DNA of 63,105 nt from an uncultured Gammaproteobacteria bacterium. GTDB lineage: Bacteria; Patescibacteriota; Microgenomatia; UBA10105; UBA927. The stretch lies in contig CAZUOM010000002.1 in NCBI GenBank assembly GCA_964621305.1, forward strand, positions 1 to 63,105, in the 5' to 3' direction. The notes under the pieces were generated by a model, which was given only the letters and a program-made list of their open reading frames with translations, was not told the DNA's origin and did not search any database. Below, piece after piece: positions 5,426-61,406 of the stretch; positions within the stretch are counted from its first letter, which is position 1; the number at the start of each line of letters is the position of its first letter. Position numbers and translations under genes: made by a program.

Positions 5426-7066
<1,641 letters not shown>

Positions 7067-7396
7067 TTAATCTACGATTGCCAGAATATCTTTTTGTTCC
7101 ACGATTGTCCATTCTTCGCCGTTGACCTTAACTTCATTGCCACCCCATTTTTTGTACATTACGCGGTCACCAACGTTGACGACCATTTTTCCATCAGAGC
7201 AGCAATCTTTTTCTCCGTCACCGCACTGACAATCATGGCACCCTCCTTTGCCCGGACCGACGGCCATCACGAGTCCAACCTGAGGCTTTTCCTTAACGCT
7301 ATCCGGAAGAACAATGCCCGACGGAAGCACGTCTTCGGCAGCAAGCGGCTTAATCAAAACGTTATCAAACAATGGTTTATAGTTAACTTTTGCCAT
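7067..7396 (-). CDS. groS: Co-chaperonin GroES with a Cys-rich insertion
   Basis: PLFDNVLIKP, SGIVLPDSVKEKP, VGDRVMY; directly upstream of groL. Confidence 0.97.
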   Translation of the reverse strand: MAKVNYKPLFDNVLIKPLAAEDVLPSGIVLPDSVKEKPQVGLVMAVGPGKGGCHDCQCGDGEKDCCSDGKMVVNVGDRVMYKKWGGNEVKVNGEEWTIVEQKDILAIVD

Positions 7397-7404
7397 AGAA
7401 AAAA

Positions 7405-7458
7405 TTGGCAGTCTCTATAAGTGACCGCTATTCTAGCGGCCATAAAAAATCTTGTCAA
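7405..7458 (-). promoter_or_regulatory. groESL promoter plus CIRCE-like (HrcA) operator
   Basis: TTGACA-N17-TAGAAT (7430-7458); ATAGCGGTC-N9-GACTGCCAA (7405-7431), a degenerate TTAGCACTC-N9-GAGTGCTAA. Confidence 0.65.
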
Positions 7459-8338
7459 GTGGTATTTTATGTCGTACTAAACGGGCTGCCAATTTGCTCC
7501 GAATCCACTCCCGTGCATCAACCGGATGAAAACGGATAAGGCTGTCGTTAACTACTTCTGTAGAACGGCGTTTGTTCATGTACCATAATTGAATAGCTCG
7601 GACTGGAAACTCAATAATGCTAAGTGCTAAATGCCAAATGCTAAATATTTTCTTTGATTTTTTTATTGACCATTTATCATTTATCACTTGGCATTTTGCT
7701 ATCCACGCATTGGGTAAAAAAGACTTAACCCACCTGTTGGCTTTCAAAAATCTCCAATACGTTCCTCCACTCTCCCATAACGGAATCATCTGCAAAACCT
7801 CATGAGCGGTAAATAAATCTTGCTCTCTTCTGGGTACGACCATGTGGGATTCGTCCACGTACATATTCAGACAAATTTTATTACAAAAAGAGACGTCCCC
7901 GGGCTTCCTGCGTAATCCGAGTATTTCAAGAATAATCGTTGTCAAAAATCGAGCGCTCCACAAAGTTCCGGCCGCGGCAACCACATAGAAATCAATATCA
8001 TCATCGCGACGTGTATTTTGCATCGCAAGGGCACCGGTAACACCAACGAGCTTGATGGTAGGAATAAACTTAAGAATATTTGCTGCCTGTGCCGCAATTC
8101 GCATTTTCCGCTTTGCCCATTTCTCCCGTTGTTTTCGTATCGCTACAATTCTTCGCCTCCCCTCAAGAAATAAACGCCCATCCAGTGAGTTAACTCCTTG
8201 TATTTTTTTTAACTTTGAACTTTTAACTTTTAACTTTGAACTTTTTATAATCCATTTCTCCAACTCTTGTTCCGTCAACGGATAATCGAATACGTCAGCA
8301 TAGGCCAACGTCGCAAAAACTGTGTCACGAAGCGTCAT
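7433..8338 (-). CDS. Hypothetical protein with a pol-beta-like nucleotidyltransferase motif
   Basis: VGVTGALA...DDDIDFYVV (G-[S/A]...DxD); carries two micro-repeat inserts. Confidence 0.6.
   Translation of the reverse strand: MTLRDTVFATLAYADVFDYPLTEQELEKWIIKSSKLKVKSSKLKKIQGVNSLDGRLFLEGRRRIVAIRKQREKWAKRKMRIAAQAANILKFIPTIKLVGVTGALAMQNTRRDDDIDFYVVAAAGTLWSARFLTTIILEILGLRRKPGDVSFCNKICLNMYVDESHMVVPRREQDLFTAHEVLQMIPLWESGGTYWRFLKANRWVKSFLPNAWIAKCQVINDKWSIKKSKKIFSIWHLALSIIEFPVRAIQLWYMNKRRSTEVVNDSLIRFHPVDAREWIRSKLAARLVRHKIPLDKIFYGR
7622..7697. repeat. Inverted pair of 7-nt tandem micro-repeats inside a CDS
   Basis: Minus strand AAATGCC AAGTGAT AAATGAT AAATGGT ... ATTTAGC ATTTGGC ATTTAGC. Confidence 0.7.
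8210..8244. repeat. (T/G)AACTTT x5 in-frame micro-repeat
   Basis: Five 7-mers encoding SSKLKVKSSKL. Confidence 0.85.
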
Positions 8339-10063: not shown

Positions 10064-11455
10064 ATGCCAAACAAAGCACACAAGAAGATCATTGCCGATG
10101 CCATCATCGGACTCTTCAGCGGATGGCTACTACTGGTAGCGTTGATCGCCATTGGCTTGCAAGTTTTTGAACAAAAATATCGCAATCGCGTCTATCCTAA
10201 CGTCGCGGTGGCAGGCCTAACCGTAAGTGGAAAAACCAAAGAGGAAGTGACCAGTTTCTGGTTATCCAAAAACGCACCGTTTACCGAGGCCGTATTTACC
10301 TTTAGCTTTCACAACCAGACTGCAACCGTTTCCGGAGCCCAGCTTAATGCCGGCTACGATGCCACGCTTTCTGCCACCCAGGCCATGGCCGTGGGAAGAT
10401 CAGGTCATTTTTTCGCAGATTTTTATGCCAAGTTTGCTCCGTCGGTGACGAACCTTTCTCCGCTGTTTCGCTGGGACGAAGAAACGCTCGACGACATCCT
10501 CAAGACGCTATCCCAATATATCGATATTCCCGTACAGGATGCGCTCTTTACCTTTGCCAACGGCCGGGTGACCGCGTTTCGGCCTTCACGAGAAGGAAGA
10601 CACGCAAATATCCCTGCGGTCAAAGAAAAATTCCGCGAATCTCTCACCGCGATTTCTGCCGACAAAAATATTCATATCCCCATTTCCGTTACCATCGACA
10701 TACCGACGTTTACCACTGATAGGGTCAACAGTTTTGGCATTAAAGAACTCGTAGGAAGGGGTTATTCTGAGTTTGCACACTCGATCCCCGGCCGCATTCA
10801 CAACGTGACGCTGGCTGCCGCAAAAATCAATGGAATCCTGATTAAACCCGGCGATACTTTCTCTTTTAACGAAGCGCTTGGCGACGTATCTGCTCTGACC
10901 GGCTTTCAGCCGGCCTACATAATTAAAGAGGGAAAAACCGTGCTCGGAGACGGAGGCGGCGTGTGCCAGGTCTCCACAACCTTGTTTCGGGCTGCCCTTG
11001 CCGCCGGACTCCCTATCGCCGAGCGGCGAGCGCACGCCTACCGCGTGTCTTACTACGAGCAGGCCGGGTTTAAAGCCGGCCTGGACGCAACGGTGTTTGC
11101 TCCTTCCGTTGATCTCAAAATCAAAAACAATACACCTGCATATATCCTCATCCAGACCAAAACCGATACAAAAAACCTAACTCTTACAATTGAACTCTAC
11201 GGCACCGGCGACGGCAGAAGTGCACAGATTAGTGACCACCGAGTCTGGGCCGAAACCGCGCCTCCGCCGCCTTTATACCAAGATGATCCGACGCTTAAAG
11301 CTGGTGTGATCAAACAAGTTGACTTTGCCGCCTGGGGGGCGAAAGCAAGCTTCCGCTACCGCGTAACGCGGGGAGGCGAAGTCCTTGAGGATACTGATTT
11401 TTTCTCTAACTTCCGACCATGGCAGGCAGTATACTTGGGAGGCACAGCACAATGA
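10064..11455 (+). CDS. VanW-family protein (membrane anchored)
   Basis: RIHNV..AA.KING.LI.PG.TFSFN, GGGVCQVSTTLF, GLDATV. Confidence 0.9.
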   Translation: MPNKAHKKIIADAIIGLFSGWLLLVALIAIGLQVFEQKYRNRVYPNVAVAGLTVSGKTKEEVTSFWLSKNAPFTEAVFTFSFHNQTATVSGAQLNAGYDATLSATQAMAVGRSGHFFADFYAKFAPSVTNLSPLFRWDEETLDDILKTLSQYIDIPVQDALFTFANGRVTAFRPSREGRHANIPAVKEKFRESLTAISADKNIHIPISVTIDIPTFTTDRVNSFGIKELVGRGYSEFAHSIPGRIHNVTLAAAKINGILIKPGDTFSFNEALGDVSALTGFQPAYIIKEGKTVLGDGGGVCQVSTTLFRAALAAGLPIAERRAHAYRVSYYEQAGFKAGLDATVFAPSVDLKIKNNTPAYILIQTKTDTKNLTLTIELYGTGDGRSAQISDHRVWAETAPPPPLYQDDPTLKAGVIKQVDFAAWGAKASFRYRVTRGGEVLEDTDFFSNFRPWQAVYLGGTAQ

Positions 11456-13293: not shown

Positions 13294-13596
13294 ATGGCTC
13301 ACCCGCCGAAATCGCTCCAACATGTTTTGTGGTCAGTAGATGTCAACAAAATAAACCTCGAAACTGACAAGGCCTACATCATCCATCAAATTTTTGCGCA
13401 CGGAAGTTTTGATGATTTTCGGTGGTTATTTCGGGTATACCCATTACCGGATATTATTCGCGTATTTACGGCAACACCTTATAAAGATTACCGACCGGCA
13501 CGTTTTAATTTTGTGAAAAACATACTCCTCAGATTAAAAGATCGCGCCATGGATCCGCGACGCTATGTCAAAAATACACCTAGAGCTATTGGATAG
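13294..13596 (+). CDS. DUF6922-like partner (putative antitoxin) of an AbiEii-type toxin
   Basis: LWSVD...YII.QIF.HG..DD.RWLF..Y pattern; overlaps the downstream toxin. Confidence 0.7.
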   Translation: MAHPPKSLQHVLWSVDVNKINLETDKAYIIHQIFAHGSFDDFRWLFRVYPLPDIIRVFTATPYKDYRPARFNFVKNILLRLKDRAMDPRRYVKNTPRAIG

Positions 13597-14209
13597 TTCC
13601 CGCCAAAAAGTCTTTGAGCAACTGCGTGTGTTTGCACAGTACGGCTACCTGGCTGGCGGCACTGCGCTTGCTTTACAACTTAACCATCGCAAGTCCGTAG
13701 ACTTTGATGTTTTCGTACAAAAACCCATCGGTTCCGCTTTGCGGAAGGAAATCAATAAAGTATTCGGTGATCACCCATATGAAGTAAACACTGCAGATCA
13801 AATTACTTTCCCGCTTGGAAAAAACATTGAGATCACGTTTCTTTACTACTGGTACCCACACATCAGGCCGCTCATTACTACCGCGTCAATTTCTCTTGCG
13901 TCCGTTGACGACATCATCGCTGACAAAGCCCACGTTCTCGGTCGCCGGACTGTGTGGCGGGACTATGTGGATTTGTTTGTCATCATGAAAAACCACGGCA
14001 TGTCGATTACGAACATTTTCAATTTGGCTACAAAAAAATTTGTTGGGGAATTCGTACGGGAGCAATTCTTGGAACAGCTCTCTTATTTTGATGACGTTGC
14101 TCCTGTTCCCGTCGAATTTGTCACCCAATCCTACACCGCAGATGAAATCAAATCCTATCTGACAGAAAAATCCAAAGAGTACGCAGCAACCATCCGACCT
14201 AAGAAATAA
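13565..14209 (+). CDS. Nucleotidyltransferase AbiEii/AbiGii-family toxin
   Basis: YLAGGTALALQLNHRKSVDFD, KAH....R..WRDYVD. Confidence 0.85.
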   Translation: MSKIHLELLDSSRQKVFEQLRVFAQYGYLAGGTALALQLNHRKSVDFDVFVQKPIGSALRKEINKVFGDHPYEVNTADQITFPLGKNIEITFLYYWYPHIRPLITTASISLASVDDIIADKAHVLGRRTVWRDYVDLFVIMKNHGMSITNIFNLATKKFVGEFVREQFLEQLSYFDDVAPVPVEFVTQSYTADEIKSYLTEKSKEYAATIRPKK

Positions 14210-20590: not shown

Positions 20591-20761
20591 TCAATGTCGA
20601 GCGCCAAGATTTTGGTTGTGGTCGCTGCCGGCTATGAAGTTGGTTAAATCAATTAAAGAAACAGAGCGACCCAAGCTGCGAGCCATCGCGATTACGACAT
20701 CAGTAACTTTTTGGGTCTGATTTCCTGTGCGACTTGTTCCGTTAATGATTGTTATATTCAT
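20591..20761 (-). pseudogene. Truncated N-terminus of a NADPH-dependent FMN reductase/flavodoxin-like gene
   Basis: MNITIINGTSRTGNQTQKVT...LIDL then a stop after 56 aa; overlaps the end of the upstream gene. Confidence 0.55.
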
Positions 20762-21692
20762 GTTGTTTTAAGAAGTGAGCAAGAATTTTTTTAGCATCTT
20801 TTTGGATCATGCTGTAATGAAAGGGTAAAATTTTATCGAAATCGTAGGCGAGAAGTTTTTTCGCGCTTGCCAGTCGCTCTCTTATATCGCCGCTTGTTCC
20901 ATCATTATTGGACACAAAATCATAAATTCCTTCTCTTCCATCGCCTTCAACGTGATCTCCAGAAAAAAGAATTTTGTTTTTCGTATCCAAAAGGAGGGCG
21001 CTGCCTGGCGTATGACCGGGGACATGAATAACCTGCAAGTGATCAGCAAATTTATATCCGTCGTCGACGAGAACATCTGGTTTAACAGTTAGCCATTGGT
21101 TATTTCCGTCATTTTTGTGAAGGTAAATTTTCGCTCGATATTCCTTCTGAAGCTTTTTCGCTTCGCCGGCTGTTGGACCATGAGACATAAAGAGTTTAAC
21201 CGGCTTATCAAAATGATCAATAAAATCCTCGTGTTCTTCGGTTAGCTGCTGAGGGCCGTCAATCAAAACTAAAAAATCTTTTTCTTCAATAAGATAACTT
21301 CCCACGTCCTCGCCATAAAAAGTTTGTTCGGGGAAACGATAGACGTTGGTCGCTATTTTAAAACGGTCGTTTGTAACGGTTTCATTGCCGTTTGCTTTCC
21401 AATCTGCCAAACCGCCTGAATATTCTAGTATATTTGTGTAGCCAAGTTTTGTAAGCTCTTTCAGGCAACGAACGCTTGCAGCGCACGTAAATCCGTCGCA
21501 AGAAGTAACGATAATAGATTTTTTATCAAGCAAAAGCTTGCCTGCTCGATCACGAACATACTTCCAACGCAAATTTTGGGCTCCAATAATGTGTTCCCAG
21601 TTGAAATAATCAACGCCTCGGCAATCAAGAAGCGTAAATTTTTTTCCTGATGTTATCAACTCTTTAAGTTCTTGGGTTGTAATTTCTTTCAT
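20742..21692 (-). CDS. Rhodanese plus metallo-beta-lactamase-fold fusion
   Basis: LLDCRG..F...HI.GA, CDGFTCAAS, YSGGLADW; then PGHTPGS and FSGDH. HxHxDH is degenerate (SHGPTA). Confidence 0.8.
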   Translation of the reverse strand: MKEITTQELKELITSGKKFTLLDCRGVDYFNWEHIIGAQNLRWKYVRDRAGKLLLDKKSIIVTSCDGFTCAASVRCLKELTKLGYTNILEYSGGLADWKANGNETVTNDRFKIATNVYRFPEQTFYGEDVGSYLIEEKDFLVLIDGPQQLTEEHEDFIDHFDKPVKLFMSHGPTAGEAKKLQKEYRAKIYLHKNDGNNQWLTVKPDVLVDDGYKFADHLQVIHVPGHTPGSALLLDTKNKILFSGDHVEGDGREGIYDFVSNNDGTSGDIRERLASAKKLLAYDFDKILPFHYSMIQKDAKKILAHFLKQHEYNNH

Positions 21693-21694
21693 TG

Positions 21695-22024
21695 TTAACG
21701 TATTTGCGAAATACTACTATCAACAAAACTCTTGATAGAAACAAGCGCTTCTTTATTTGGCTTACAGTAAACAAACTTTCCATTTTTCTTGCACTCGATA
21801 AGCCCCCCTTGTCTCAAGTCATCTATGTAACTAGAGACTGTCGATTGTGGAAGTTTCAGATCCTTTACTACACCAGTAACACAGTTGCCTGTATAGCCTT
21901 TTGCCGTATCTAAATCGCAATCGCAGCCCTCGGCAAGGATTTTTAAGAATATCGAAAGGCGCAAGGGGTTTCCTAAAAGATCCATGTATCGAGACACGGA
22001 GCGATAGAACAGCAGCTTAGTCAT
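21695..22024 (-). CDS. ArsR/SmtB-family transcriptional regulator
   Basis: LGNPLRLSIF...LPQSTVS....LRQGGLI...K.GK.VYC; TTGACA-N16-TATAAT upstream. Confidence 0.85.
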   Translation of the reverse strand: MTKLLFYRSVSRYMDLLGNPLRLSIFLKILAEGCDCDLDTAKGYTGNCVTGVVKDLKLPQSTVSSYIDDLRQGGLIECKKNGKFVYCKPNKEALVSIKSFVDSSISQIR

Positions 22025-22089
22025 ATACACATATTATATCACATTTTTACGATATGTCAAGCGAAGAATAATAAGTATATAATTGTGGC

Positions 22090-24336
22090 ATGGCAAAACT
22101 AAAGAAAGAGAAACTGCCGCAGCATTTGAAGGAACTTCTTAAAATCAGTGGTAAGCCCACGTGGCGCAAAAAGATCAGGAAGTGGTTGCCGTGGACATTT
22201 TGGGTGCTGCCGCTTTTAGTCGTTATTCTTTCATATCTTCTGATTTTCAAAGACCTTCCTTCGCCGACCGGACTGGGCAAATACGATATTCCGCTGGCCA
22301 CCAAAATCTATGACCGAAACGGTAAACTTCTTTTTGACATTTTTGCTGAACAAAACAGGACTCCTGTTCCCCTCAAGGATATTCCAAAACATGTACAGCA
22401 GGCAACAATAGCTATAGAAGATAAAGACTTTTATAACCACGGCGCGATCGATCCCATCGGTGGGCTGTTGCGGGCGGCAGCAGCGACTGTCACCGGAAAA
22501 AAACTTCAAGGTGGTTCAACGATCACACAACAGATGGTTAAATCAGCTCTTCTTACTCCGGAGCGAACCATCATACGAAAAATAAAAGAAATTATTTTGG
22601 CGTTTTGGGTCGAGATCCTGTACCCGAAAGATAAAATCCTTGAACTCTACCTTAACCAAGTCCCCTACGGCGGAACCGCGTGGGGCATAGAAACAGCCAG
22701 TGAAAAATACTTCGCTAAATCCGTGCGCGAACTGACATTGGCTGAGGCCACACTTCTTACGGGCCTGCCGCAAGCGCCGACGCTCTACTCCCCATTTGGA
22801 GCTCACCCGGAGCTAGCTAGAAAGCGACAAAAAGAAGTGTTGCGTCGGATGGTGGAGGACCGCTACATTACCCAAAATCAGGCAGACGCGGCCATAAGCG
22901 AAGAGCTCCACTTTAAAAACGAACCAAATATCAAGGCCGCTCACTTTGTCATGTACGTCAAAGAAGAGTTAGTAGAAAAGTTTGGCGAACGACTCGTTGA
23001 GCAGGGCGGGCTCAAAGTAACGACTACGCTTGACCTGTCTTTGCAAGAGCATTCTCAAGCAACTGTGGCAGCAGAAGTAGCAAAACTCAAAAATTTGCGC
23101 GTCACCAATGGCGCTGCGTTAATCACAAAACCTGCTACCGGCGAGATATTGGCTATGGTCGGCTCCACAGACTACTTTGCCTCGCGATCGGGAAACTTTA
23201 ACGTCACGACAGCCCCTCGCCAACCTGGCTCATCAATTAAACCAATTAATTACGCCATTGGCCTAGAAAAAAAAATTATTACTCCGGCAACTATGTTTCT
23301 AGACGTTCCAACGTGTTTTGCCAACGTCAACCAGCCTAACTACTGCCCAAAAAATTATGACGGGCAATTTCACGGACCCGTGCAAGCCCGCTTTGCACTG
23401 GGCAACTCATATAACATCCCGGCGGTCAAAATGCTCTACTTAAATACAGTTAGTGACATGGTGGCATCGGCTTCGGCCTTCGGTTTGGACACGCTTGTTG
23501 ACCCAAGCCGCTACGGCCTTTCACTGACTCTTGGCGGCGGCGAAGTACGTATGACTGATATGGCAGAGGCATTCGGCGTATTTGCAAACGCAGGTGTAAG
23601 AAAAGATTTGATAGCAATACTTAAAGTCGTCGATAAGCGGGGAAAGCTGCTTTTCGAACGTAAAGACCCAAATCTCACTCAAGAAGTTCCCTCGCAACTG
23701 CTCTTGCAAGGACCTCGGGTTTTATCACCGGAAACGAGTTTCCTAGTGTCGCATATGCTTTTGGATAACAACGCTAGAAGTGCCGCCTTCGGACCTAATT
23801 CCGCCCTAGTCATCCCAGGCTACGCGGTATCAGTCAAAACCGGAACAACCGATGATTTGCGGGATAACTGGACGATTGGCTACACGCCGCAAGTCTTGGT
23901 CGCCACCTGGGTCGGCAATAACGACAATACGCCGATGAACCAGACACTAGTTTCAGGTGTAACCGGGGCAGCTCCAATCTGGAATAAGATAATGAAGCGC
24001 GCGCTCGAGGGGAAAACTGATGTCTGGCCCAAACAGCCCGAGGGGGTCGTCGGCGCGCAAGTGTGTTCGCTGACAGGGCTTGCTCCACCTAACCCCGAGG
24101 GAGATGATAAAGGGTGTACCACGCGCTTTGAGTACTTCACCCGCGGCACTGTTCCAACTCAAAGGGAGACAATCAAACAACAAGTGCTTATTGACAAAGA
24201 AACTGGAGATATTGCTCCACCAGGAAAAACAAATAACGTAGAGATCCAGGGGCACGATGTGCTTCGCGACCAAACCAGCGCCACTTGGTGCCTGGACTGC
24301 CCCCACCCGGACGAAAGGGTGACATTGATCAGATGA
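22090..24336 (+). CDS. Class A penicillin-binding protein (PBP1A family), copy 1
   Basis: EDKDFY.H, GGSTITQQ, RKIKE, SSIK (SxxK), SYN, KTGT. Confidence 0.95.
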   Translation: MAKLKKEKLPQHLKELLKISGKPTWRKKIRKWLPWTFWVLPLLVVILSYLLIFKDLPSPTGLGKYDIPLATKIYDRNGKLLFDIFAEQNRTPVPLKDIPKHVQQATIAIEDKDFYNHGAIDPIGGLLRAAAATVTGKKLQGGSTITQQMVKSALLTPERTIIRKIKEIILAFWVEILYPKDKILELYLNQVPYGGTAWGIETASEKYFAKSVRELTLAEATLLTGLPQAPTLYSPFGAHPELARKRQKEVLRRMVEDRYITQNQADAAISEELHFKNEPNIKAAHFVMYVKEELVEKFGERLVEQGGLKVTTTLDLSLQEHSQATVAAEVAKLKNLRVTNGAALITKPATGEILAMVGSTDYFASRSGNFNVTTAPRQPGSSIKPINYAIGLEKKIITPATMFLDVPTCFANVNQPNYCPKNYDGQFHGPVQARFALGNSYNIPAVKMLYLNTVSDMVASASAFGLDTLVDPSRYGLSLTLGGGEVRMTDMAEAFGVFANAGVRKDLIAILKVVDKRGKLLFERKDPNLTQEVPSQLLLQGPRVLSPETSFLVSHMLLDNNARSAAFGPNSALVIPGYAVSVKTGTTDDLRDNWTIGYTPQVLVATWVGNNDNTPMNQTLVSGVTGAAPIWNKIMKRALEGKTDVWPKQPEGVVGAQVCSLTGLAPPNPEGDDKGCTTRFEYFTRGTVPTQRETIKQQVLIDKETGDIAPPGKTNNVEIQGHDVLRDQTSATWCLDCPHPDERVTLIR

Positions 24337-24389
24337 CGTAATATATTAAAGAACCTATAATTAGTATTATTAAACACTACTATTAAAAA

Positions 24390-27218
24390 ATGGAACGGAT
24401 TCCAAATACCGGACAATTTGTTATTGGCCCGGACAATAAAATTCATCGTGGTAACCAGATTCTTAACAATAGTGAAGTCTTGCCGCGCTTATCTGAAGTC
24501 CCGGAACCGTACCGACAGGATTATGAGGGTCTCTGTAGTATGTATGGCAAAGACCGGGTTGATGGGCTGCGCGCTGCGGGTAAAACCGTGGCGGTCTTGT
24601 ACCCCTTTGCCGGCATGGGACACGCGTATCAGGCGTGGGTGCTAGCTGAGTATTACCAGGCCATGGGTTTTCGTGTCGTGTTTGCGGACATATTCGAAAT
24701 TGCCCAACCTGACGAACTCGTACGGCTGAAGATGGAACAAGAGGTTTTGAGATCAATCCATCAAAGCAAGAGAGGCGAGTGGGACACTTTGGTTCGCAGA
24801 GACCCAAAATATTTCGTCTTAGATAAAATCGTTTCAGTGTTCGCCACTATGGGGCACAGCCTATATGCTGCTGGCGCGGAAGACGGAATTAGAAAAACAG
24901 GGCGCCAAAATTTTGTCGAAAAAATAGGGAATGCGATCGGAAAAAACCTAGACAAATCCAAGCACGTAGTGCCGTTTTTGTTTCGACTCCTTGTCCGGCT
25001 TGAACAGCAATTCGTTTCCAAGGAGATGCAAAACTCCATGGTATCCTTTTGCGACAGTCTTGGAGTAGACCTTGTAGCGGCATCGCATACTTGGGGGGTG
25101 CGTCCATTTATCGGGACCAAGTACGAAGATCGGGCGTTTAGCGCCATTCCGGATATAGGCTATAGCGACCCCGCCATCATGTTTTCATTCGCTGCGGTCG
25201 GCAGCCGGATCGCACACGGAACGCCGGGGGGTAGACCCGCAAAACTTTTATCCGATTTTCGTCATATACCGAAGAACCAGAGATTTGATCGGGTTGGCAC
25301 GTTGGCGCAGACACCGGATTATTTGGCAAAAGCGAAATGGGAATCTGATGACCGGTGGGTGATGATTTCGGCTTCCGGCAATAACGATAACCATGATTAT
25401 ATGATGAGGGCATTACAAGATTGGTACAGCTGTTACAAAAATAAGCAAAGCCCGTATGGGCTAATCTTGTTTCTTGGTATGCACAATGGCAAAGAGGTGC
25501 TGAATGAATTGGAGCGATTGGGTTTAACAGGTAATCCAAACATTCACGTCGTGCAGACAGCCAATATGATAGAGACAGCTATATGGCGTTGGTACTGCAA
25601 GCAGGCAGTACAAATTGATATAGCCAAACCCGGAGAAAACCCGCTGGACAGCGGCCCACTTGGAGTTGTTAACCTTGCCATAAAAGCAGGCGCAAGAAAT
25701 GAGGTGAACAACTTAGCCCATGCGGCAATTGACTGGGGGTCTGCAATTCCCTCTGCCTGGCCGCCGGAAGATTACAAATATTGGAAAAGCACCAATGAAT
25801 TTTCGGCATTTACCGCCCCGGGGTTTGAAAGATCTCAGCAAAACTTGTTCGTTTATCTCGATTACCTATTTGGTGAAAATCAGGAGAAAAAAAATTATGC
25901 TAGAGATTGCGCAACCCGGGGTCGCTATAGCGTGCCGCATCAGGCTGGTAAATATTACGCGGCATTAGTAATTAGTAAAATGCTCGGCATAGACTCACTT
26001 AATATGCGCATGGTTGCGTTTCAAAACGTAGAAGAGCGCAAGGAAAAACTGCGCATGGTGCTTGATTTGGTTGGTAGAAACTGGAAAGACGCTCCGTCAG
26101 TTGTGGATTGGCTGCAGGATGCTCTGCTTGAGCTGGCCGGGTATCAACGGGGAGAGATGAATGTGTTTTTAAAGGCTGTTGCACCAAAAACCATGGTAAT
26201 AACCATTCACGGAGGTGCGGCAACACGGTGGGGTGAATCGTTTCAGACTGATGAAGGAAAGCAGATTCTAGATCGCTACGAAATTAATCCATCGGTATCA
26301 ACCAAAGCCAGATGCCTGGTGGACCTTCCGGTTGCCTTCAGTGAGCATTACCCGGATAATGATAGGCAGCCGGTTATTGCATGGAATTTTGAGGCAGTCA
26401 GGGATATCGTCTGCGCCGGAGCAAGCCACATGGTGATAGCAGGTTCAGAAAAAAACAAAGATGAGCTTCTCGGAGTCGCCTCTCAAATGGGGATGGATGG
26501 AAGCTTTGGAAGATTGCAGAAAGTAAGAGACCGTAAGCTAAAAGTGCAAGGCCACGGTGATGCGCTACTACAGCAGCTAGATGACCTGAAAAAAGCAAAA
26601 GAACAAGGAATAGAGTATTTAGTGGCACATTTTGCCGGAGACGCTACTGATTCGCGCAGTGTTCAAATGAGCCTTTTGCTTCAGTACGTACTCAAATTAA
26701 ATGGTAAACCCGTCTCGGGCGTTTTACCGACGGCACCCATGGCGATCCCCAAGTATCCGGTCTACCGTGATACCATGGGCCGGAGTGTCTTTCTTGGCCA
26801 CGAAAAATTATATGGTCCTAACTCTGTAGGCAATCCTCTGGCAAAAGTGGTACAGCTGACGTTTGATGGCAAGGAGGATCTTTTTGAAACCGGCGGGTCC
26901 AATATCGGGGTATGGGTTTTTGACCTGCCTCAGACAATTGAAGTGCTTGATAGCGTTGTCGGGCTCTACGACGAAGCTCATACGTTTGCAAGGCTGCCTG
27001 GTCACGGAGCCAAACAGATGGATGAGTTTGCCCTCGACGACCTCGTCCGAATGCTGGGCGATGTGGTTCAAATTATGGTATCGAGCAAAAAAGAGATAGC
27101 TTCTAGCGTTAAAGCCCTCACGGATATTACGGGATTTCTAGAGAGTGTTGCTGCTGTTAAAAGTCGCCAGCGCTCTCGCAAAAGCAGACAAAAAATACTC
27201 AAACCATTCCTCTTGTAG
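24390..27218 (+). CDS. Putative GT-B glycosyltransferase fused to a GlmU-like nucleotidyltransferase domain
   Basis: N-half AGMGH, SHTWG, SASG, IAKPGE; C-half IHGGAATRW, GHGDAL, FAGD, NIGVWVF. Confidence 0.6.
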   Translation: MERIPNTGQFVIGPDNKIHRGNQILNNSEVLPRLSEVPEPYRQDYEGLCSMYGKDRVDGLRAAGKTVAVLYPFAGMGHAYQAWVLAEYYQAMGFRVVFADIFEIAQPDELVRLKMEQEVLRSIHQSKRGEWDTLVRRDPKYFVLDKIVSVFATMGHSLYAAGAEDGIRKTGRQNFVEKIGNAIGKNLDKSKHVVPFLFRLLVRLEQQFVSKEMQNSMVSFCDSLGVDLVAASHTWGVRPFIGTKYEDRAFSAIPDIGYSDPAIMFSFAAVGSRIAHGTPGGRPAKLLSDFRHIPKNQRFDRVGTLAQTPDYLAKAKWESDDRWVMISASGNNDNHDYMMRALQDWYSCYKNKQSPYGLILFLGMHNGKEVLNELERLGLTGNPNIHVVQTANMIETAIWRWYCKQAVQIDIAKPGENPLDSGPLGVVNLAIKAGARNEVNNLAHAAIDWGSAIPSAWPPEDYKYWKSTNEFSAFTAPGFERSQQNLFVYLDYLFGENQEKKNYARDCATRGRYSVPHQAGKYYAALVISKMLGIDSLNMRMVAFQNVEERKEKLRMVLDLVGRNWKDAPSVVDWLQDALLELAGYQRGEMNVFLKAVAPKTMVITIHGGAATRWGESFQTDEGKQILDRYEINPSVSTKARCLVDLPVAFSEHYPDNDRQPVIAWNFEAVRDIVCAGASHMVIAGSEKNKDELLGVASQMGMDGSFGRLQKVRDRKLKVQGHGDALLQQLDDLKKAKEQGIEYLVAHFAGDATDSRSVQMSLLLQYVLKLNGKPVSGVLPTAPMAIPKYPVYRDTMGRSVFLGHEKLYGPNSVGNPLAKVVQLTFDGKEDLFETGGSNIGVWVFDLPQTIEVLDSVVGLYDEAHTFARLPGHGAKQMDEFALDDLVRMLGDVVQIMVSSKKEIASSVKALTDITGFLESVAAVKSRQRSRKSRQKILKPFLL

Positions 27219-29571: not shown

Positions 29572-29892
29572 ATGCAATTACAATCAATTTCGGACCAAAC
29601 CCCCAACGTCATTTCCATTACCCAGGTTCGTGAAGATATCGATATTTTGACAAAGGCATTGAACGAATTTGGCAGAGTACGGGTATTGCGTGGCCAGAAA
29701 GTCTTGTTTGATGCTGTTGATCCCTCTTTTGAAGAAAAACGGCGGGAAAGGATCAAAAAAGCAGTGGCGCAAATTAGGTTTGTGGCCCAAAAATATAAAA
29801 ACAAAAAAGGTTCGATATCTGCGACAGAATGGTTAATCAAAGAGCGCGATCGGATGCGAACCAAAAAATATTATGAAGATCGTAACCGTTGA
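29572..29892 (+). CDS. Putative Phd/YefM-like antitoxin
   Basis: ISITQVR...RVRVLR N-terminus; directly upstream of and overlapping a PIN toxin. Confidence 0.55.
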   Translation: MQLQSISDQTPNVISITQVREDIDILTKALNEFGRVRVLRGQKVLFDAVDPSFEEKRRERIKKAVAQIRFVAQKYKNKKGSISATEWLIKERDRMRTKKYYEDRNR

Positions 29893-30298
29893 CACTTCTG
29901 TAATTGCAAAGTGGTATTGCACAGAAAACGAGGCAGATTTAGACAAAAGTTACCAGCTTCAAGAATTTATTGTTGACGAAAAATATTTCCTGATTTGCCC
30001 TCGAATTATTACTTTAGAACTGGTAAACGTCTTAAGATTTAGCAAGAAGATGTCCCACGGCGACTGCCTCAATTCAGTAAATTCATTAATTGATCTTTGC
30101 ACAAATTTAACAGAAACTCCAAAAATGGAATTGGTTACTGAAATCATGTACAAGAGTAACTTAACAAGTTATGATTCGGCGTTTATAGCCTTAGCTGAAT
30201 CGAAGAATTGTCCTCTAATTACTGCCGATTATAAACACCACAAAAAATCTGTCTCCAAAAATATCGTCTGGTTGAAAGAATGGAAAGGATCTTTTTGA
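29873..30298 (+). CDS. vapC: PIN-domain (VapC) toxin
   Basis: VDTSVIAKW, LELVN, YDSAFIALA, LITAD. Confidence 0.88.
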   Translation: MKIVTVDTSVIAKWYCTENEADLDKSYQLQEFIVDEKYFLICPRIITLELVNVLRFSKKMSHGDCLNSVNSLIDLCTNLTETPKMELVTEIMYKSNLTSYDSAFIALAESKNCPLITADYKHHKKSVSKNIVWLKEWKGSF

Positions 30299-40971: not shown

Positions 40972-41060
40972 TGGCGGTGGGGGCGAGATTCGAACTCGCG
41001 CGTGCCTTGCGGCACATCTGCTCTCCAAGCAGACGCAATGGGCCTCTATGCGACCCCACC
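40972..41060 (-). tRNA. tRNA-Ser(GGA)
   Basis: Long variable arm GTGCC-GCAA-GGCAC, anticodon loop TTGGAGA, encoded CCA. Confidence 0.93.
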
Positions 41061-41086
41061 TACGGTTTCTCCCTTAACACGCTTTG

Positions 41087-41509
41087 TCAAACATCTGCGG
41101 ACCTCCAAACATTTGCTATCATTTCTTGTAATTTAAAAAAGTCAACTTTATGATTATATCTAATTTTAAAAGTTCCCAACTCGTTGGGTTTATACTTGCT
41201 ATTTTTTTGTTTCAACAGAATAACTTTTTGAAATTGACGTTTCGGAATTCCAGACCGTCTTGACCAAAAATTTTTTAACTTTTCAATGTTATAATCAGGA
41301 TACAAAAAAAGTTGGCCCCTCACCCTTGTTGAGTCAACCGCTAAAATCTCTCTGAGAAATTTGCAAAACAACGCAATAATTTCCGGCTTAGAATTAGTTA
41401 ACTCGATTGCATAAATCCAATGACTTTTTTCTTTTTGACTGTTTCTCGCTTTAGTTCCTTCGCAGGCGTAAAGCATCGCACCTGCTAGTTTTAGCTGACT
41501 CTTGGTCAT
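41087..41509 (-). CDS. Single-motif LAGLIDADG-like protein adjacent to tRNA
   Basis: LAGAMLYACEGTK ... ELTNSKPEII..F..FL ... FWS...GIP..QF ... GTFKIRY. Confidence 0.55.
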   Translation of the reverse strand: MTKSQLKLAGAMLYACEGTKARNSQKEKSHWIYAIELTNSKPEIIALFCKFLREILAVDSTRVRGQLFLYPDYNIEKLKNFWSRRSGIPKRQFQKVILLKQKNSKYKPNELGTFKIRYNHKVDFFKLQEMIANVWRSADV

Positions 41510-41560
41510 GTACGCTAGTATAGCGTACTACCCTCAAATGTCTGCTTTTTAGGTGGGTTT

Positions 41561-42445
41561 TTACTTATAACGCGATATGAGGTACACGCCGGAGACAAGA
41601 AGCGCGGCCCCTAACAGAAACGAGCTGGCAATAGTTTCGCCAAACACAAAAAATCCCGCAACGCCTGCAGTTGCCGTATTGAGGTACACGATGCTACTAG
41701 TCAAAAGTGTTGATCCGTACTTGATGCCAAAGTTATATAGATACCACATGACGATACTCAAAACTATCCCAACAAACAGAAGCGCTGCCCATCCGACAGC
41801 TGACAGCGAGGCAATGGCTGCCATTTGATTACCTTCAAATATAATCATCGCGCCGATAGAGGCAACCAGTGTCATAAATGCAGTTGCTGCCGTAATCTCA
41901 ATGGGTGTGACAATCGTACTGATTCGCTTTGCAGCCAAAAGATAGAGCGACCAACAAATGGTTGCGAGCGTCAATAAAGTATTGCCGTATACAGTGCCTA
42001 GTCCAACAGCGCCGCTTGCGGGATGTAAAACTATAATAAGTGTCCCGCTTAAGCCAAAAAGTATTCCGAGAAGTTGCCTCGGCTGAAATGATTTTTTTGT
42101 CCCAATAGTTTGCTCGATAAACATAAGAACCGGAACGGCTCCATACAAAAGTTGCGATACGGCGCTCGTTGTATAGCCAACGCCTAAAATGAAAAGAAAA
42201 ATATTGCCGGCAAAAAATGCGCTTAATAGGACCAGTTTCTTCCAGTGGGCAATCAAAGCTGGTGCCTGGCGATAGACCAGCGGCACAAGGATGACGCTGG
42301 CGACAGCGTAGCGCAAAAACGTAATAGTCATGGGAGGCAATTCGCGGAGAAGAATTTTTGCAGCAATCGGCGCAAGTCCGCCGAGAATCCCCGCGCAAAC
42401 TAGTGCAAGCGTTGCAGTGGTCGCTTTATTTTGCAAACTCTTCAT
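41561..42445 (-). CDS. DMT/EamA-family transporter
   Basis: About 10 TM segments, duplicated EamA pattern, GET/LGAALLVSG ending. Confidence 0.9.
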   Translation of the reverse strand: MKSLQNKATTATLALVCAGILGGLAPIAAKILLRELPPMTITFLRYAVASVILVPLVYRQAPALIAHWKKLVLLSAFFAGNIFLFILGVGYTTSAVSQLLYGAVPVLMFIEQTIGTKKSFQPRQLLGILFGLSGTLIIVLHPASGAVGLGTVYGNTLLTLATICWSLYLLAAKRISTIVTPIEITAATAFMTLVASIGAMIIFEGNQMAAIASLSAVGWAALLFVGIVLSIVMWYLYNFGIKYGSTLLTSSIVYLNTATAGVAGFFVFGETIASSFLLGAALLVSGVYLISRYK

Positions 42446-43043
42446 GGAGGCTGTCACGGATGTTTTTCCACCAGTCTTGGGAACTTGAGATAACTAAATC
42501 TTGCGCCAATGCAATGGCCTCCGGCAGCCGCAAGCGCTTGATATTACCGTCGATCCATTCCTGGGCGTGGGTGTTGCCTTTTTCCAAAAGGAGCTTGAGT
42601 TCGACGAGAAACGCAATCACGTTGGCCTCGTAGACTATTTTGGCTTCAAGCGTTTCTTTTTTTTCGTAGGTATTGAGCATCTTAAGCAACTCATTATCAA
42701 CGCCTTCAAATATATCGCGGTTGGCTTTGTCCTGATCGCGCGTCATGTAGAACTTGGCGATCTTATCAAGATCCCCGGTGCGGGCTTCGTGGAAATCGTG
42801 GAAAACTGCCATCGTCAAAACGGTTTCCATGTTTACCGTTTTTATAAGGTCTCTCCTTGCCTCTTGCAAGGAGAGACCTTTAGAAATTTCTTTCGCAAGG
42901 AAATACGCAATTACACACGTCATAAATGTATGTTCCCCCACCCCTTCCTCGTTGTCCCCAAGAATTTGCCAGCCTGTCCGAAGCATCCGCTTGACTACAG
43001 CTGCTTCATATACGAGATTGGTAATTGCTTTAGTGTTTTTCAT
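42426..43043 (-). CDS. HD-domain phosphohydrolase (YfbR-like)
   Basis: R.GW...E.VGEH, HDFHEARTGD; palindromic insert. Confidence 0.88.
   Translation of the reverse strand: MKNTKAITNLVYEAAVVKRMLRTGWQILGDNEEGVGEHTFMTCVIAYFLAKEISKGLSLQEARRDLIKTVNMETVLTMAVFHDFHEARTGDLDKIAKFYMTRDQDKANRDIFEGVDNELLKMLNTYEKKETLEAKIVYEANVIAFLVELKLLLEKGNTHAQEWIDGNIKRLRLPEAIALAQDLVISSSQDWWKNIRDSLHEEFAK
42846..42880. repeat. Perfect 15-bp inverted repeat inside the HD gene
   Basis: AAGGTCTCTCCTTGC-CTCTT-GCAAGGAGAGACCTT. Confidence 0.9.
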
Positions 43044-43083
43044 GGGCGTTTACGCAGAAAATCGCGTCTTCGCGATTATTCTG

Positions 43084-43155
43084 CGCTCTCGGGCAGAGTC
43101 GAACTGCCATCCCAGCCTTCGGAGGGCCGCGTTCTATCCATTGAACTACGAGAGC
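43084..43155 (-). tRNA. tRNA-Arg(CCG)
   Basis: Cloverleaf, anticodon loop CTCCGAA. Confidence 0.93.
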
Positions 43156-43182
43156 CTAGGGATATTATATCGCAGAAGAACG

Positions 43183-43601
43183 TCACTCCTCTATATTGGT
43201 AATGTCTCCCTGTAGGACAACCGGCTGCATGGCATGCAACTCTAAACTATACTCCATCGTGGGTAAATCATATAACACGTAGATCTTTTTCTTTAGAAAA
43301 TAAGCTACTCCCATCTCCAAAAACGAATTGCCGCCGATGTAGCAGGCAACGCCGTGTTTTGCAGGATTGACCACAAGAATCGCCTCTGATCGTTTTATTT
43401 TCTCAAAGTGTTCGCTCAAGAAGTGATACTTTTCTTCGGCTTGCAAACGCTCTTCTGTTGTCACCGGCTTTTGGAATCCTTTCTCCTCCATGAGCGTAAG
43501 ACTTGGGGCACCAGCGGTGTATGCCCAAGAGCTTTGAGCGCTTTTTCCACGTCGCGCATTTCTTTATGAAACGTAGTGCTACCGCAGATAGTTATAACCA
43601 T
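43183..43601 (-). pseudogene. Nucleoside 2-deoxyribosyltransferase-like gene with a frameshift near 43505-43512
   Basis: MVITICGS...GH...P in one frame, continuing ...SEAILVVN...YIG..S.LEM..A..LKK.IY in another. Confidence 0.65.
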
Positions 43602-43604
43602 AAG

Positions 43605-43691
43605 CGGAGGCGAGAGGATTTGAACCTCTGTGAGCCTTACGGCCCGCTCGGTTTTCGAGACCGGCCAAATAAACCACTCTTGCACGCCTCC
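43605..43691 (-). tRNA. tRNA-Ser(CGA)
   Basis: Long variable arm GGGCC-GTAA-GGCTC, anticodon loop CTCGAAA. Confidence 0.92.
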
Positions 43692-43717
43692 CGAAATAAT
43701 TTCTTCGAAATTTTCTG

Positions 43718-43789
43718 TGTCCCCGAGCAGAGTCGAACTGCTATTTCAGCCTTCGCAGGGCCGCGCTCTATCCATTGAGCTACGAGGAC
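43718..43789 (-). tRNA. tRNA-Arg(GCG)
   Basis: Cloverleaf, anticodon loop CTGCGAA. Confidence 0.92.
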
Positions 43790-45420: not shown

Positions 45421-46119
45421 CTACTTTCCAAATCTGCGCTGGCGGGAGGTGAACTGAGCAATCACATCATCCAGTTTTTCCGGAGTAAATTCCGGCATAA
45501 ACCACTGGGGAAAATAGATCTCGCTGTAAACAGACTGCCAAGGTAAAAATCCGCTCAGTCGCTGTTCCCCTCCAGTGCGGACAATCATCTCCGGATCGGG
45601 AATGCCGGAAGTATCAAGACAATTGTTAAATTGTTCCATTGTTAAATTATTACAGTTTCCTCTCACATTAAGCAACTTATTTATTGCTCGAATAATCTCG
45701 TCTCTTCCTCCGTAGTTGAGCGCAAAGATTGCCGTAATAGCGGTGTTGTTTTTCGTTTGTTCCACAACTTTATCCAGGGCATCTTTAATGTGGTTAGAGA
45801 ATTTACTGGTGTCGCCAATCACCTTAATCTGCACTCCCTTTTTATGCAGCCGGTACCATCGGTCTTTGATGATATACCGAAAAATCCGCATGATTCCTTC
45901 GACTTCTTTTTTATCCCTCTTCCAATTTTCTGTCGACCACGCCCAAAAGGTCATGTATTTGATACCGCGTTTGGTAGCATACTCAATAAGCGGCTCAAGA
46001 ATGTCATCGGCAACCTTCTTATGCCCGGCCAATGGTGATAGTCCGTGTGTCTTTGCCCACCTGCGGTTGCCATCCATGATAATGGCTATATGAAGGGGGA
46101 CATTGGTAAATTGTTTCAT
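45421..46119 (-). CDS. uppS: cis-prenyltransferase (undecaprenyl diphosphate synthase)
   Basis: HIAIIMDGNRRWA, STENW.R, LNYGGR.E, RTGGE.RLSGF. Confidence 0.97.
   Translation of the reverse strand: MKQFTNVPLHIAIIMDGNRRWAKTHGLSPLAGHKKVADDILEPLIEYATKRGIKYMTFWAWSTENWKRDKKEVEGIMRIFRYIIKDRWYRLHKKGVQIKVIGDTSKFSNHIKDALDKVVEQTKNNTAITAIFALNYGGRDEIIRAINKLLNVRGNCNNLTMEQFNNCLDTSGIPDPEMIVRTGGEQRLSGFLPWQSVYSEIYFPQWFMPEFTPEKLDDVIAQFTSRQRRFGK
45620..45651. repeat. (AAYAATNN)4 in-frame insert in uppS
   Basis: Encodes NNLTMEQFNN. Confidence 0.8.
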
Positions 46120-46131
46120 TGTTAAATTGTT
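46100..46131. repeat. (AACAATNN)4 at the NUDIX/uppS junction
   Basis: Supplies the NUDIX stop and the probable uppS start. Confidence 0.8.
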
Positions 46132-46646
46132 AAAAACCCGATATGTTTCAGTGTCGCCGCGGCCCACGTTGAAAGCATTACCTCTCCGGATGAAATTTTT
46201 TTATCAAGCTCTTCTTTACTGAAAAAGGCAACGTGATCGATTTCGTCAGGACTGGTCTGGAACGGACCTTCATATATAGTCTTGTACAGCGCGTTCATTT
46301 CTGCTTCCCGTTCATCTTCAAAGTATCGAGTGTGGAGGTGCTTCACTGGTACATCAATACCGAGCTCTTCTACAAGCTCCCGCCTCACCGCTTGCTCGTA
46401 AGTTTCTCCTTTGGAAACATGACCTGCTGCGGAAATGCCCCAGTATCCAGGTTGTAAATCTTTGGTCAAGCTCCGCTTCTGCAGAAGAATCCTGCCTTTC
46501 TTGTCGAAAATAACGACTCCTACGGCGCGATGGATGAGCGCTTTGTCCCGATGACACTCTGTTCGCATACGGTACCCCAAGACATTGTCATTGCGGTCAA
46601 CGACAATAAAAAGCTCATGTAAATCATCAGTTATTTGTCGTTTCAT
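46122..46646 (-). CDS. NUDIX hydrolase, IPP-isomerase-like
   Basis: HRAV...ILLQKRS..K...PG.W..SAAGHV..GE......RELVEELG. Confidence 0.85.
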   Translation of the reverse strand: MKRQITDDLHELFIVVDRNDNVLGYRMRTECHRDKALIHRAVGVVIFDKKGRILLQKRSLTKDLQPGYWGISAAGHVSKGETYEQAVRRELVEELGIDVPVKHLHTRYFEDEREAEMNALYKTIYEGPFQTSPDEIDHVAFFSKEELDKKISSGEVMLSTWAAATLKHIGFLTI

Positions 46647-51065: not shown

Positions 51066-51122
51066 GCCCAAAGTATACCACCAGCGTTGACTTCTTTCGT
51101 CCTATTCTCCTACACTGATAGT

Positions 51123-59367: not shown

Positions 59368-59477
59368 ACTATTTTAGAAACTATAGGCTTTTTATACCAT
59401 ATGCCATACTAAAATGGAATATATGGTTTTCTTTATTGTATGCGGTCAGATAAACACGCGCAAGCGGCGTCGAGAGG

Positions 59478-61371: not shown

Positions 61372-61406
61372 AATTGGTATAATTATATACCAAAAAATGC
61401 ACCGTG

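Follow-up and report, generated by a model that had tools for sequence, protein, structure and literature searches.

A patescibacterial protein predicted to join a GT-B module to a divergent sugar-1-phosphate nucleotidyltransferase

Enzymes of the UDPGP family (UAP1/AGX1, UGPase and the Leishmania UDP-sugar pyrophosphorylase, USP; PF01704) carry a G-G-x-x-T-R loop, a loop of the type P-x-G-H-G-D, an N-x-G strand motif, an acidic E-x-x-x-D and a late Lys. The Patescibacteria, or candidate phyla radiation (CPR), are abundant bacteria with small genomes and many genes without a function, most of them dependent on a host, and how they build an envelope with scant precursor metabolism is an open question. 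Activation of a sugar can be combined with another step in a single chain, as in Bacteroides FKP, a bifunctional L-fucokinase/GDP-fucose pyrophosphorylase (PMC11982464). In this work we analysed a protein of 942 amino acids (aa) encoded in a 63,105-nucleotide (nt) stretch of patescibacterial DNA (the window; contig CAZUOM010000002.1, positions 1 to 63,105), in which an N-terminal module with a predicted GT-B fold (N module) precedes a module related to sugar-1-phosphate nucleotidyltransferases (C module). We think it rather likely that this protein has two enzymatic activities, first activating a sugar and then transferring it during the synthesis of an envelope glycan.

Predicted folds and distant homologies of the two modules

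The structure of the protein was predicted with AlphaFold2 (AF2) using an alignment (A4) of 38 rows that was checked to be block-diagonal, with ~20 rows over each half. In every mode tried, MAFFT misplaced proteins consisting of the N module alone onto the C half when many C-only rows were present, which was remedied in A4, where the C-only rows number no more than 14 and multi-domain relatives are included. The model obtained has a mean predicted local distance difference test score (pLDDT) of 90.6 and a predicted TM-score (pTM) of 0.91, compared with a pLDDT of 36.5 for single-sequence AF2, and only its first 21 and last 3 residues are disordered. According to DSSP, the model contains an N-terminal Rossmann-like domain with strands at residues 66-71, 95-100, 228-231, 249-252 and 275-277, another Rossmann-like domain, of six strands (residues 322-454), several helices (residues 486-600) and a mixed alpha/beta domain (residues 601-895) that closes with a long helix. 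The N half is thereby predicted to have a GT-B fold, i.e., two Rossmann-like domains with C-terminal helices, and the C half the GT-A-like fold of sugar-1-phosphate nucleotidyltransferases (UDPGP/NTP_transferase).

Foldseek searches with the model returned 69 matches in the PDB at E≤0.001. The C half matched the UDP-GlcNAc pyrophosphorylases of Aspergillus, Entamoeba, Candida, human and Spodoptera as well as the ADP-glucose pyrophosphorylases of Escherichia coli and potato and the Leishmania USP, with E values of 2e-7 to 2e-5 and a probability of 1.00; its matches in the viral library BFVD were a Hokovirus UDP-GlcNAc diphosphorylase, with a target TM-score (TMt) of 0.74, and a Klosneuvirus UGPase. 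For the N half (E values of 6e-6 to 3e-5), the UDP-GlcNAc 2-epimerases came first, namely MnaA of Staphylococcus aureus and those of Listeria, Neisseria and Bacillus subtilis (5enz, 3ot5, 6vlb, 7vza and 4fkz; TMt 0.45-0.55), and were followed by the trehalose synthase TreT (TMt 0.34). Several GT-B structures in the PDB and BFVD matched this half with a Foldseek probability of 1.00, and its BFVD matches were GT1/GT4 glycosyltransferases of phages and giant viruses.

Sequence searches with the 942-aa protein in Pfam, NCBIfam and the PDB gave nothing credible, and no Pfam or NCBIfam match was found at E≤1, PF00483 and PF01704 included for the C module. The C-module profile retrieved only GlmU and the ADP-glucose pyrophosphorylase GlgC from the PDB sequences, weakly (E 0.13-0.57) and with the four classical motifs in register. 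Comparison by hhalign of a 60-sequence C-module profile with six NTP-transferases of E. coli K-12 (RffH, RfbA, GalU, GalF and the N-domains of GlmU and GlgC) gave a probability of 88.6% (E 2.7e-6, 145 columns) and aligned the GHGDA, GD and N-x-G motifs, compared with at most 0.6% for six unrelated E. coli control proteins. We conclude that the C module, although very divergent, truly belongs to the sugar-1-phosphate nucleotidyltransferase superfamily.

For the N module, sequence searches revealed no significant relation. Neither its whole profile nor that of its C-domain found a relevant match among the PDB sequences, and the profile of its N-domain core, with a helical insertion removed, had as its top match 9wde_A (E 0.043, marginal), the processive diacylglycerol beta-glucosyltransferase UgtP. 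This alignment covers the N-terminal motif of strand, G-x-G-H (GNGH in UgtP), helix and strand. Comparisons by hhalign of the N profile with the single E. coli sequences of MurG, WecB, GlgA, WcaL and GlgP all gave probabilities of 0.5% or less, so that sequence methods cannot separate a transferase from an epimerase here. The N module has no match to Glyco_transf_28, Glyco_tran_28_C or MGDG_synth at E≤1 (17 relatives: none at E≤0.1), and Pfam gave no Epimerase_2 (PF02350) match for the module or its relatives.

An earlier reading made from the DNA sequence alone had proposed a GT-B fold for the N half and a GlmU/NTP-transferase pattern lacking the beta-helix domain for the C half. The GT-B fold agrees with the model and with Foldseek, and the lack of a beta-helix with the helical C-terminus of the model and the absence of a hexapeptide (Hexapep) match in Pfam. 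The nucleotidyltransferase assignment holds as to fold and profile, whereas the structurally nearest enzymes are the eukaryote-type UDPGP members (UAP1, UGP and USP) rather than GlmU. Its comparison of the N half to MurG and monogalactosyldiacylglycerol (MGDG) synthase holds for the fold, but as an enzyme label it is weakly supported, given that a GT28 Pfam match is absent, that UgtP was found at a marginal E value and that the epimerases are structurally nearer.

Recurrent fusion, conserved residues and a proposed reaction sequence

To collect relatives, HMMER was run exhaustively against the representatives of 1.84 billion clusters (50% identity; E≤0.001), which yielded 79 proteins including the query, i.e., 78 relatives. 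Word-indexed searches returned the query protein only, both with its sequence (5.8 billion proteins) and with the N-module alignment. Architectures were mapped by phmmer and by hidden Markov models (HMMs) made from each half. The N-C order occurs in at least six proteins: the fusion is full in P0005, P0006 and P0017 and more divergent in P0020 and P0064, and P0043 and P0033 are probably also divergent fusions of this kind. Two proteins, P0027 and P0028, have the reverse C-N order, while ~17 relatives are stand-alone N modules (550-660 aa) and ~45 are stand-alone C modules (340-390 aa). Further fusions thus exist in both orders, and at least five metagenomes other than that of the query contain fusions with the same module boundaries.

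Names for these relatives were found in no source, nearly all of them are singletons, and no convincing Pfam match was found among them. Weak matches to DUF6938 (Pfam; E 0.017 and 0.0037) were obtained for P0005 (residues 311-400) and one N-only relative, and may indicate a distant link to another uncharacterised family; they cover the first beta-alpha-beta unit in the second of the two Rossmann domains that make up the N module. A profile search for related loci found one genome locus and three metagenome loci only, and the genome locus, the only one recovered from the collection of species-representative genomes, bears the label 'Patescibacteria group bacterium'. The loci of the relatives look like CPR genomes, with many family-less open reading frames (ORFs), sortases and PIN toxins, which points to a groundwater bacterium of the Patescibacteria type as the probable source of the window too. 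Both module families are rare and apparently restricted to CPR-type bacteria.

At 20-35% identity, G75, G77, H78, D255, K316, G330, G415, E416, G425, E438, N441 and W465 are invariant or nearly so in the N family, and G609, R613, W614, R641, G721, H722, D724, D751, N838, G840, E879, D883 and K908 are near-invariant in the C family (Table 1). We assigned roles to these residues from DSSP positions and motif order; in the model they follow the strands that bind the nucleotide-sugar in GT-B enzymes, or NTP, metal and sugar in nucleotidyltransferases. The model places the S-A-S-G-N loop where GT-B enzymes usually bind phosphate, and D255 is a candidate catalytic partner of H78. The signature loop of the C family has the consensus (A/G)-G-x-x-(T/S)-R-W, and, judging from motif order, R641 would take the place of the Lys in the 'PK.L' part of the signature motif, a deviation from Lys to Arg. 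All motifs quoted in the sequence-only reading, among them SHT of the N half (residues 232-234), were found in place except the Lys of HGG.ATRW..K, where the residue is S617. That reading would have been abandoned had the folds or the catalytic residues been lacking; both halves model as the predicted folds and their motif residues are near-invariant. Such near-invariance at 20-35% identity argues that both modules are active enzymes.

The neighbourhoods of the relatives (designated L011, L015 and L017 where coordinates are given) suggest a shared theme of sugar activation and envelope glycan synthesis, each association being that of one locus. P0017 (L011, 8001-11222) has a same-strand gene for a hexose-phosphate mutase of the PGM/PMM/GlmM type (6485-7900) 100 nt upstream and a PfkB sugar kinase gene near. 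A GT2 gene begins 2 nt after the C-N fusion P0028, with GT2, GT4, hydrolase and GT4 genes next in order; P0006 has a sortase gene and GT2/GT4 genes nearby and is convergent with the gene for a GT2-like protein of 1725 aa. A Mur ligase gene occurs near one stand-alone C module and an Acyl_transf_3 gene near one stand-alone N module, while P0005 is situated between the YchF GTPase and rpsF-ssb-rpsR. Directly downstream of P0017 there is a family-less 539-aa ORF (L011, 11232-12851). Divergent fusion relatives on two independent metagenome contigs are directly followed by a conserved 710-aa ORF lacking a Pfam match (L015, 2910-5042; L017, 1052-3184), in L017 with a second ORF of ~708 aa after it, and the conserved ORF may be a functional partner of these fusions.

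From these observations we propose a soluble cytoplasmic enzyme of two modules; no hydrophobic segment long enough for a transmembrane helix was found in the 942-aa protein. The C module would make an NDP-sugar and pyrophosphate from an NTP, most likely UTP, and the 1-phosphate of a hexose or an N-acetylhexosamine; UTP and these sugars are suggested by the GHGD loop and by the UDPGP-type structural neighbours. In its C-terminal Rossmann domain the N module would bind the resulting NDP-sugar, and it would most likely be an inverting glycosyltransferase of the GT1/GT28 type with the invariant His78 as a base, together with an Asp. The acceptor would be held by the N domain and the helical insertion, and may be an envelope glycan or glycolipid, to which the neighbourhoods point; that the insertion binds the acceptor or the membrane is speculation. 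The mutase encoded beside P0017 would supply the sugar-1-phosphate. Since the same two modules are fused in both orders, we predict that they catalyse consecutive steps or form a complex, such that the product of one would be the substrate of the other, and the mutase and glycosyltransferase neighbours together with the two fusion orders make activation followed by transfer plausible. Transfer is favoured over epimerisation because of the invariant G-x-G-H loop, the UgtP match and the glycosyltransferase-cluster contexts.

Table 1. Coordinates in the window of the gene for the 942-aa protein, its modules and motifs, and its flanking elements
Feature	Position in window	Strand	Basis or conservation
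CDS of the two-module protein, 942 aa, ATG start	24390..27218 (including stop codon)	+	ORF list
Upstream class A penicillin-binding protein (PBP), 748 aa	22090..24336	+	Pfam Transgly + Transpeptidase
Downstream class A PBP paralog, 746 aa	27251..29491	+	Pfam Transgly + Transpeptidase
AT-rich spacer before the 942-aa gene, 53 nt, 83% AT	24337..24389	+	Composition
Two sigma-70-like hexamer pairs in the AT-rich spacer region	24319-24347, 24333-24361	+	Promoter scan
N module, residues ~22-545, predicted GT-B fold	24453..26024	+	N-family HMM covers residues 4-555; DSSP; Foldseek
A-G-M-G-H, residues 74-78, glycine-rich loop and His after beta-1	24609..24623	+	G75, G77 and H78 invariant
Helical insertion, basic (isoelectric point (pI) 9.1), residues ~101-225, between beta-2 and beta-3	24690..25064	+	Model
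I-P-D-I-G-Y, residues 253-258	25146..25163	+	D255 invariant (19/19)
S-A-S-G-N, residues 327-331, loop after first strand of C domain	25368..25382	+	Model and conservation
K-P-G-E-N, residues 413-417	25626..25640	+	G415 and E416 invariant (23/23)
N-E-V-N-N, residues 437-441	25698..25712	+	E438 and N441 invariant (23/23)
C module, residues ~550-928, predicted nucleotidyltransferase fold without beta-helix	26037..27173	+	C-family HMM covers 550-928; Foldseek; hhalign
G-G-A-A-T-R-W, residues 608-614 (HGGAATRW 607-614), signature loop resembling G-x-G-T-R-(M/L)	26211..26231	+	G609 56/57, R613 55/57
K-A-R-C-L, residues 639-643	26304..26318	+	R641 53/56
G-H-G-D, residues 721-724 (GHGDAL 721-726), putative nucleotide-binding loop	26550..26561	+	Aligns with G-x-x-x-A loop of RffH and GlmU
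F-A-G-D, residues 748-751	26631..26642	+	D751 51/59; aligns with metal-binding 'GD' Asp of NTP-transferases
S-N-I-G, residues 837-840 (SNIGVWVF 837-844)	26898..26909	+	N838 56/59, G840 57/59
E-F-A-L-D, residues 879-883	27024..27038	+	E879 and D883 conserved (56/57)
K908	27111..27113	+	Near-invariant (56/57), family alignment
Very basic C-terminal tail SRQRSRKSRQKILKPFLL, pI 12	27162..27215	+	Not conserved in other fusions

The gene, its flanks and the rest of the window

As the sequence-only reading had described, the gene lies after an AT-rich spacer, co-oriented between two class A PBP paralogs. These share 54% identity, each matches PF00912 (E ~1e-58) and PF00905 in Pfam, and both score slightly below the NCBIfam cutoff of TIGR02074. 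The 32-nt spacer 3' of the gene is of ordinary composition, and no terminator-like hairpin was found between the first PBP gene, the gene for the 942-aa protein and the second PBP gene. Because the promoter-like sites in the region are no more frequent than in shuffled sequence, a promoter in the spacer ahead of the gene is only a possibility.

The same fused protein is encoded in two assemblies of one organism, in versions that differ by three substitutions (P0001 versus P0002: 288 A/S, 291 F/R and 298 I/R). The window encodes the P0002 version; the substitutions cluster in a surface loop of the N-domain, and could be strain variation or an assembly difference. A search of sequencing runs located the sequence in two DNA runs, both from one groundwater metagenome sample, and found no RNA run that contains it. 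The GC content and codon-position GC of the gene match those of its neighbours and are uniform over both halves. The two assemblies, the homologous fusions in unrelated metagenomes and the composition matching that of the neighbours confirmed that the ORF is real, being neither a chance ORF nor an assembly chimera. Horizontal transfer or a mobile origin of the gene was considered and rejected because its base composition matches the neighbours.

Several other features were recorded in the window. Directly downstream of the second PBP gene (29572-30298, + strand), a family-less 106-aa ORF overlaps a PIN-domain ORF (141 aa) by 20 nt, and the pair looks like a VapBC-type toxin-antitoxin system. 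Divergent from the first PBP gene (20742-22030, - strand), a Rhodanese and metallo-beta-lactamase fusion (316 aa) is encoded with an ArsR-like helix-turn-helix gene (111 aa); the 59-nt AT-rich region between these genes and the first PBP gene contains a perfect TTGACA-16-TATAAT on the minus strand (22060-22033). Other envelope-related genes encode a protein with VanW and PG_binding_4 domains (10064-11455, +), an undecaprenyl-diphosphate synthase (UppS; 45421-46167, -) and a polyprenyl synthetase (50238-51071, -). ORFs of the AbiEii nucleotidyltransferase toxin family (type IV toxin-antitoxin) are found at 13565-14209 (+; E 5e-13) and 60008-60805 (-; E 5e-27). The second belongs to a minus-strand region (55126-63080) in which a 1413-aa ORF lacking a Pfam match, the AbiEii-like gene and a gene for a TrwB/TraG-type type IV secretion coupling protein (61407-63080) follow each other; this region possibly marks the edge of an integrated conjugative or mobile element. 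At the window start (1-1415, -), a 23S rRNA is cut off after its 5' 1154 positions by the end of the window and is preceded by tRNA-Ala(TGC), and a cluster of four tRNAs (Ser-GGA, Arg-CCG, Ser-CGA and Arg-GCG) is located at 40972-43789 (-).

Alternative readings and relation to known systems

Several observations weigh against an enzyme that activates a sugar and then transfers it. Neither module is matched by any curated family in Pfam or NCBIfam, and no glycosyltransferase has a significant sequence link to the N module. The relatives share no conserved neighbourhood, and genes for stand-alone N and C modules were not found adjacent to each other (within 8 kb, in the loci examined). The best structural neighbours of the modelled N module are 2-epimerases, which are not transferases. 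The N module might accordingly modify the NDP-sugar made by the C module (e.g., UDP-GlcNAc) in a two-step supply of precursors. It would then be either a 2-epimerase that forms UDP-ManNAc or an enzyme of the NeuC/LegG/PseG type, acting as a hydrolysing epimerase or an NDP-sugar hydrolase. The C half, whose top matches are UDP-GlcNAc pyrophosphorylases, would supply exactly the substrate of the epimerases that rank ahead of TreT, and GNE is a precedent of an epimerase fused to another enzyme of its pathway. Yet the hhalign alignment to WecB (0.5%) is shifted out of domain register, the Epimerase_2 match is missing, and the family-invariant G-x-G-H after beta-1 corresponds to the N-terminal motif of UgtP and not to the 'GTRPE' loop of WecB. 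The GT-B matches in BFVD are moreover glycosyltransferases, and the global TM-score of a GT-B protein varies strongly with how far its domains are opened. We consider an epimerase or hydrolase unlikely on balance, though it deserves serious attention. A more specific kind of transfer would be that of a MurG-like lipid II synthase or wall-polymer glycosyltransferase, fed by the built-in UDP-GlcNAc pyrophosphorylase and supplying both flanking PBPs. This would suit the position of the gene between the two co-oriented PBP genes with no terminator-like site, the top structural matches of the C half, the Mur ligase gene near one stand-alone C module and the presence of UppS in the window. The hhalign alignment to E. 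coli MurG, although not significant (0.4%), is colinear over the full length, with the G-loop, SxG and GE opposite MurG motifs. A GT28 match in Pfam is absent, however, and a family of 79 clusters at 50% identity among 1.84 billion is too rare for a general lipid II synthase. The PBP genes, the main hint at a wall or lipid acceptor, are adjacent in this genome only and at none of 10 other loci with relatives, so that conserved synteny was looked for and did not appear, and we regard a role as lipid II synthase or wall-polymer transferase as improbable.

It could also be asked whether the modules are enzymes at all. Both families are very divergent from characterised enzymes and the signature-loop Lys is replaced by Arg, which would be compatible with one or both modules being catalytically dead and serving as a nucleotide-sugar sensor, regulator or scaffold. 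Against this stands the conservation of the canonical motif residues, at ~85-100% over ~20-60 relatives sharing 20-35% identity, as expected of active enzymes, and a dead module appears quite improbable to us, somewhat more so than the lipid II synthase. That the fusion is an artefact of a frameshift, of mis-assembly or of read-through of adjacent genes is effectively refuted and has hardly any probability left: the protein is present in the two assemblies despite the three substitutions, fusions with the same boundary come from the other metagenomes, AF2 packs the modules confidently and the composition does not change between the halves, whereas nothing was found in favour of an artefact.

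With activation followed by transfer as the preferred reading, two unannotated families become enzymes that can be tested, one of them a divergent sugar-1-phosphate nucleotidyltransferase and the other a GT-B enzyme that is likewise divergent. If confirmed, they would add one new family each to the glycosyltransferases and the pyrophosphorylases, and would provide a handle on envelope glycan synthesis in CPR bacteria and a one-polypeptide activation/transfer system possibly useful in glycoengineering; if the N module is an epimerase, the outcome would be more modest, namely a fused precursor-supply enzyme. The sequence-only reading had imagined an organism that scavenges precursors from a host, and a host-dependent lifestyle is consistent with the patescibacterial origin. 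It is tempting to go further and to speculate, tentatively and with the odds against it, on an activate-and-transfer machine specific to Patescibacteria/CPR, which would convert scavenged sugar-1-phosphate to an NDP-sugar and channel it to a divergent GT-B transferase. This transferase would build a glycolipid of the envelope or a glycan of the wall, which might include a lipid-linked precursor of peptidoglycan or of a wall polymer next to the PBPs. If this were true, cells with a minimal nucleotide-sugar metabolism would need no free NDP-sugar pool, and the two new enzyme families (a CAZy-type glycosyltransferase and a pyrophosphorylase) would come with a new pathway design.

Among known systems, the UDPGP family provides the best structural matches to the C module, which shares the motifs listed at the outset. 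It differs from that family in the absence of a PF01704 match at E≤1, the 11-14% identity and a shorter, helical N-terminal region, and it lacks a C-terminal beta-helix or dimerisation domain and is fused to a GT-B domain instead. With the bacterial NTP_transferase enzymes of PF00483 (RmlA/RffH, GalU, the GlmU N-domain and GlgC) it has the fold and the profile relation in common, yet it remains under the threshold of every curated model and has Arg for the signature Lys; compared with GlmU, the left-handed beta-helix acetyltransferase domain is missing. The N module has a GT-B fold in common with the GT28-type enzymes (MurG, MGDG synthase and UgtP/YpfP), and its beta-1/G-x-G-H/alpha-1/beta-2 unit has UgtP as its marginal top match among the PDB sequences. 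Its Ser/Gly loop, G-E and N-E-x-x-N motifs come after strands 1, 4 and 5 of the C-domain, where MurG has its donor-binding loops, and may be equivalent to them. It differs from these enzymes by the lack of significant sequence similarity, a helical insertion of ~125 residues and extra C-terminal helices. Of the GT-B proteins, the non-hydrolysing UDP-GlcNAc 2-epimerases WecB/MnaA (PF02350) rank first in structural similarity to the N module (TMt up to 0.55), and their substrate UDP-GlcNAc is what a UAP-like module would be expected to make. They show no sequence relation to the N module, however, have G-T-R-P-E instead of G-x-G-H in the beta-1 loop and are epimerases and not transferases. A literature search found neither a description of a pyrophosphorylase and a GT-B domain paired in one chain nor a mention of the assembly, and to our knowledge none of GlmU, FKP, GNE and the archaeal IPCT/DIPPS has this pairing. 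All four nevertheless follow the same logic as the 942-aa protein with other partners, in that a nucleotidyltransferase is joined to the enzyme of an adjacent step, typically for salvage or to supply precursors. The two folds themselves are well known, and what is new is the existence of two families below the detection limit of Pfam and NCBIfam together with their pairing in one polypeptide.

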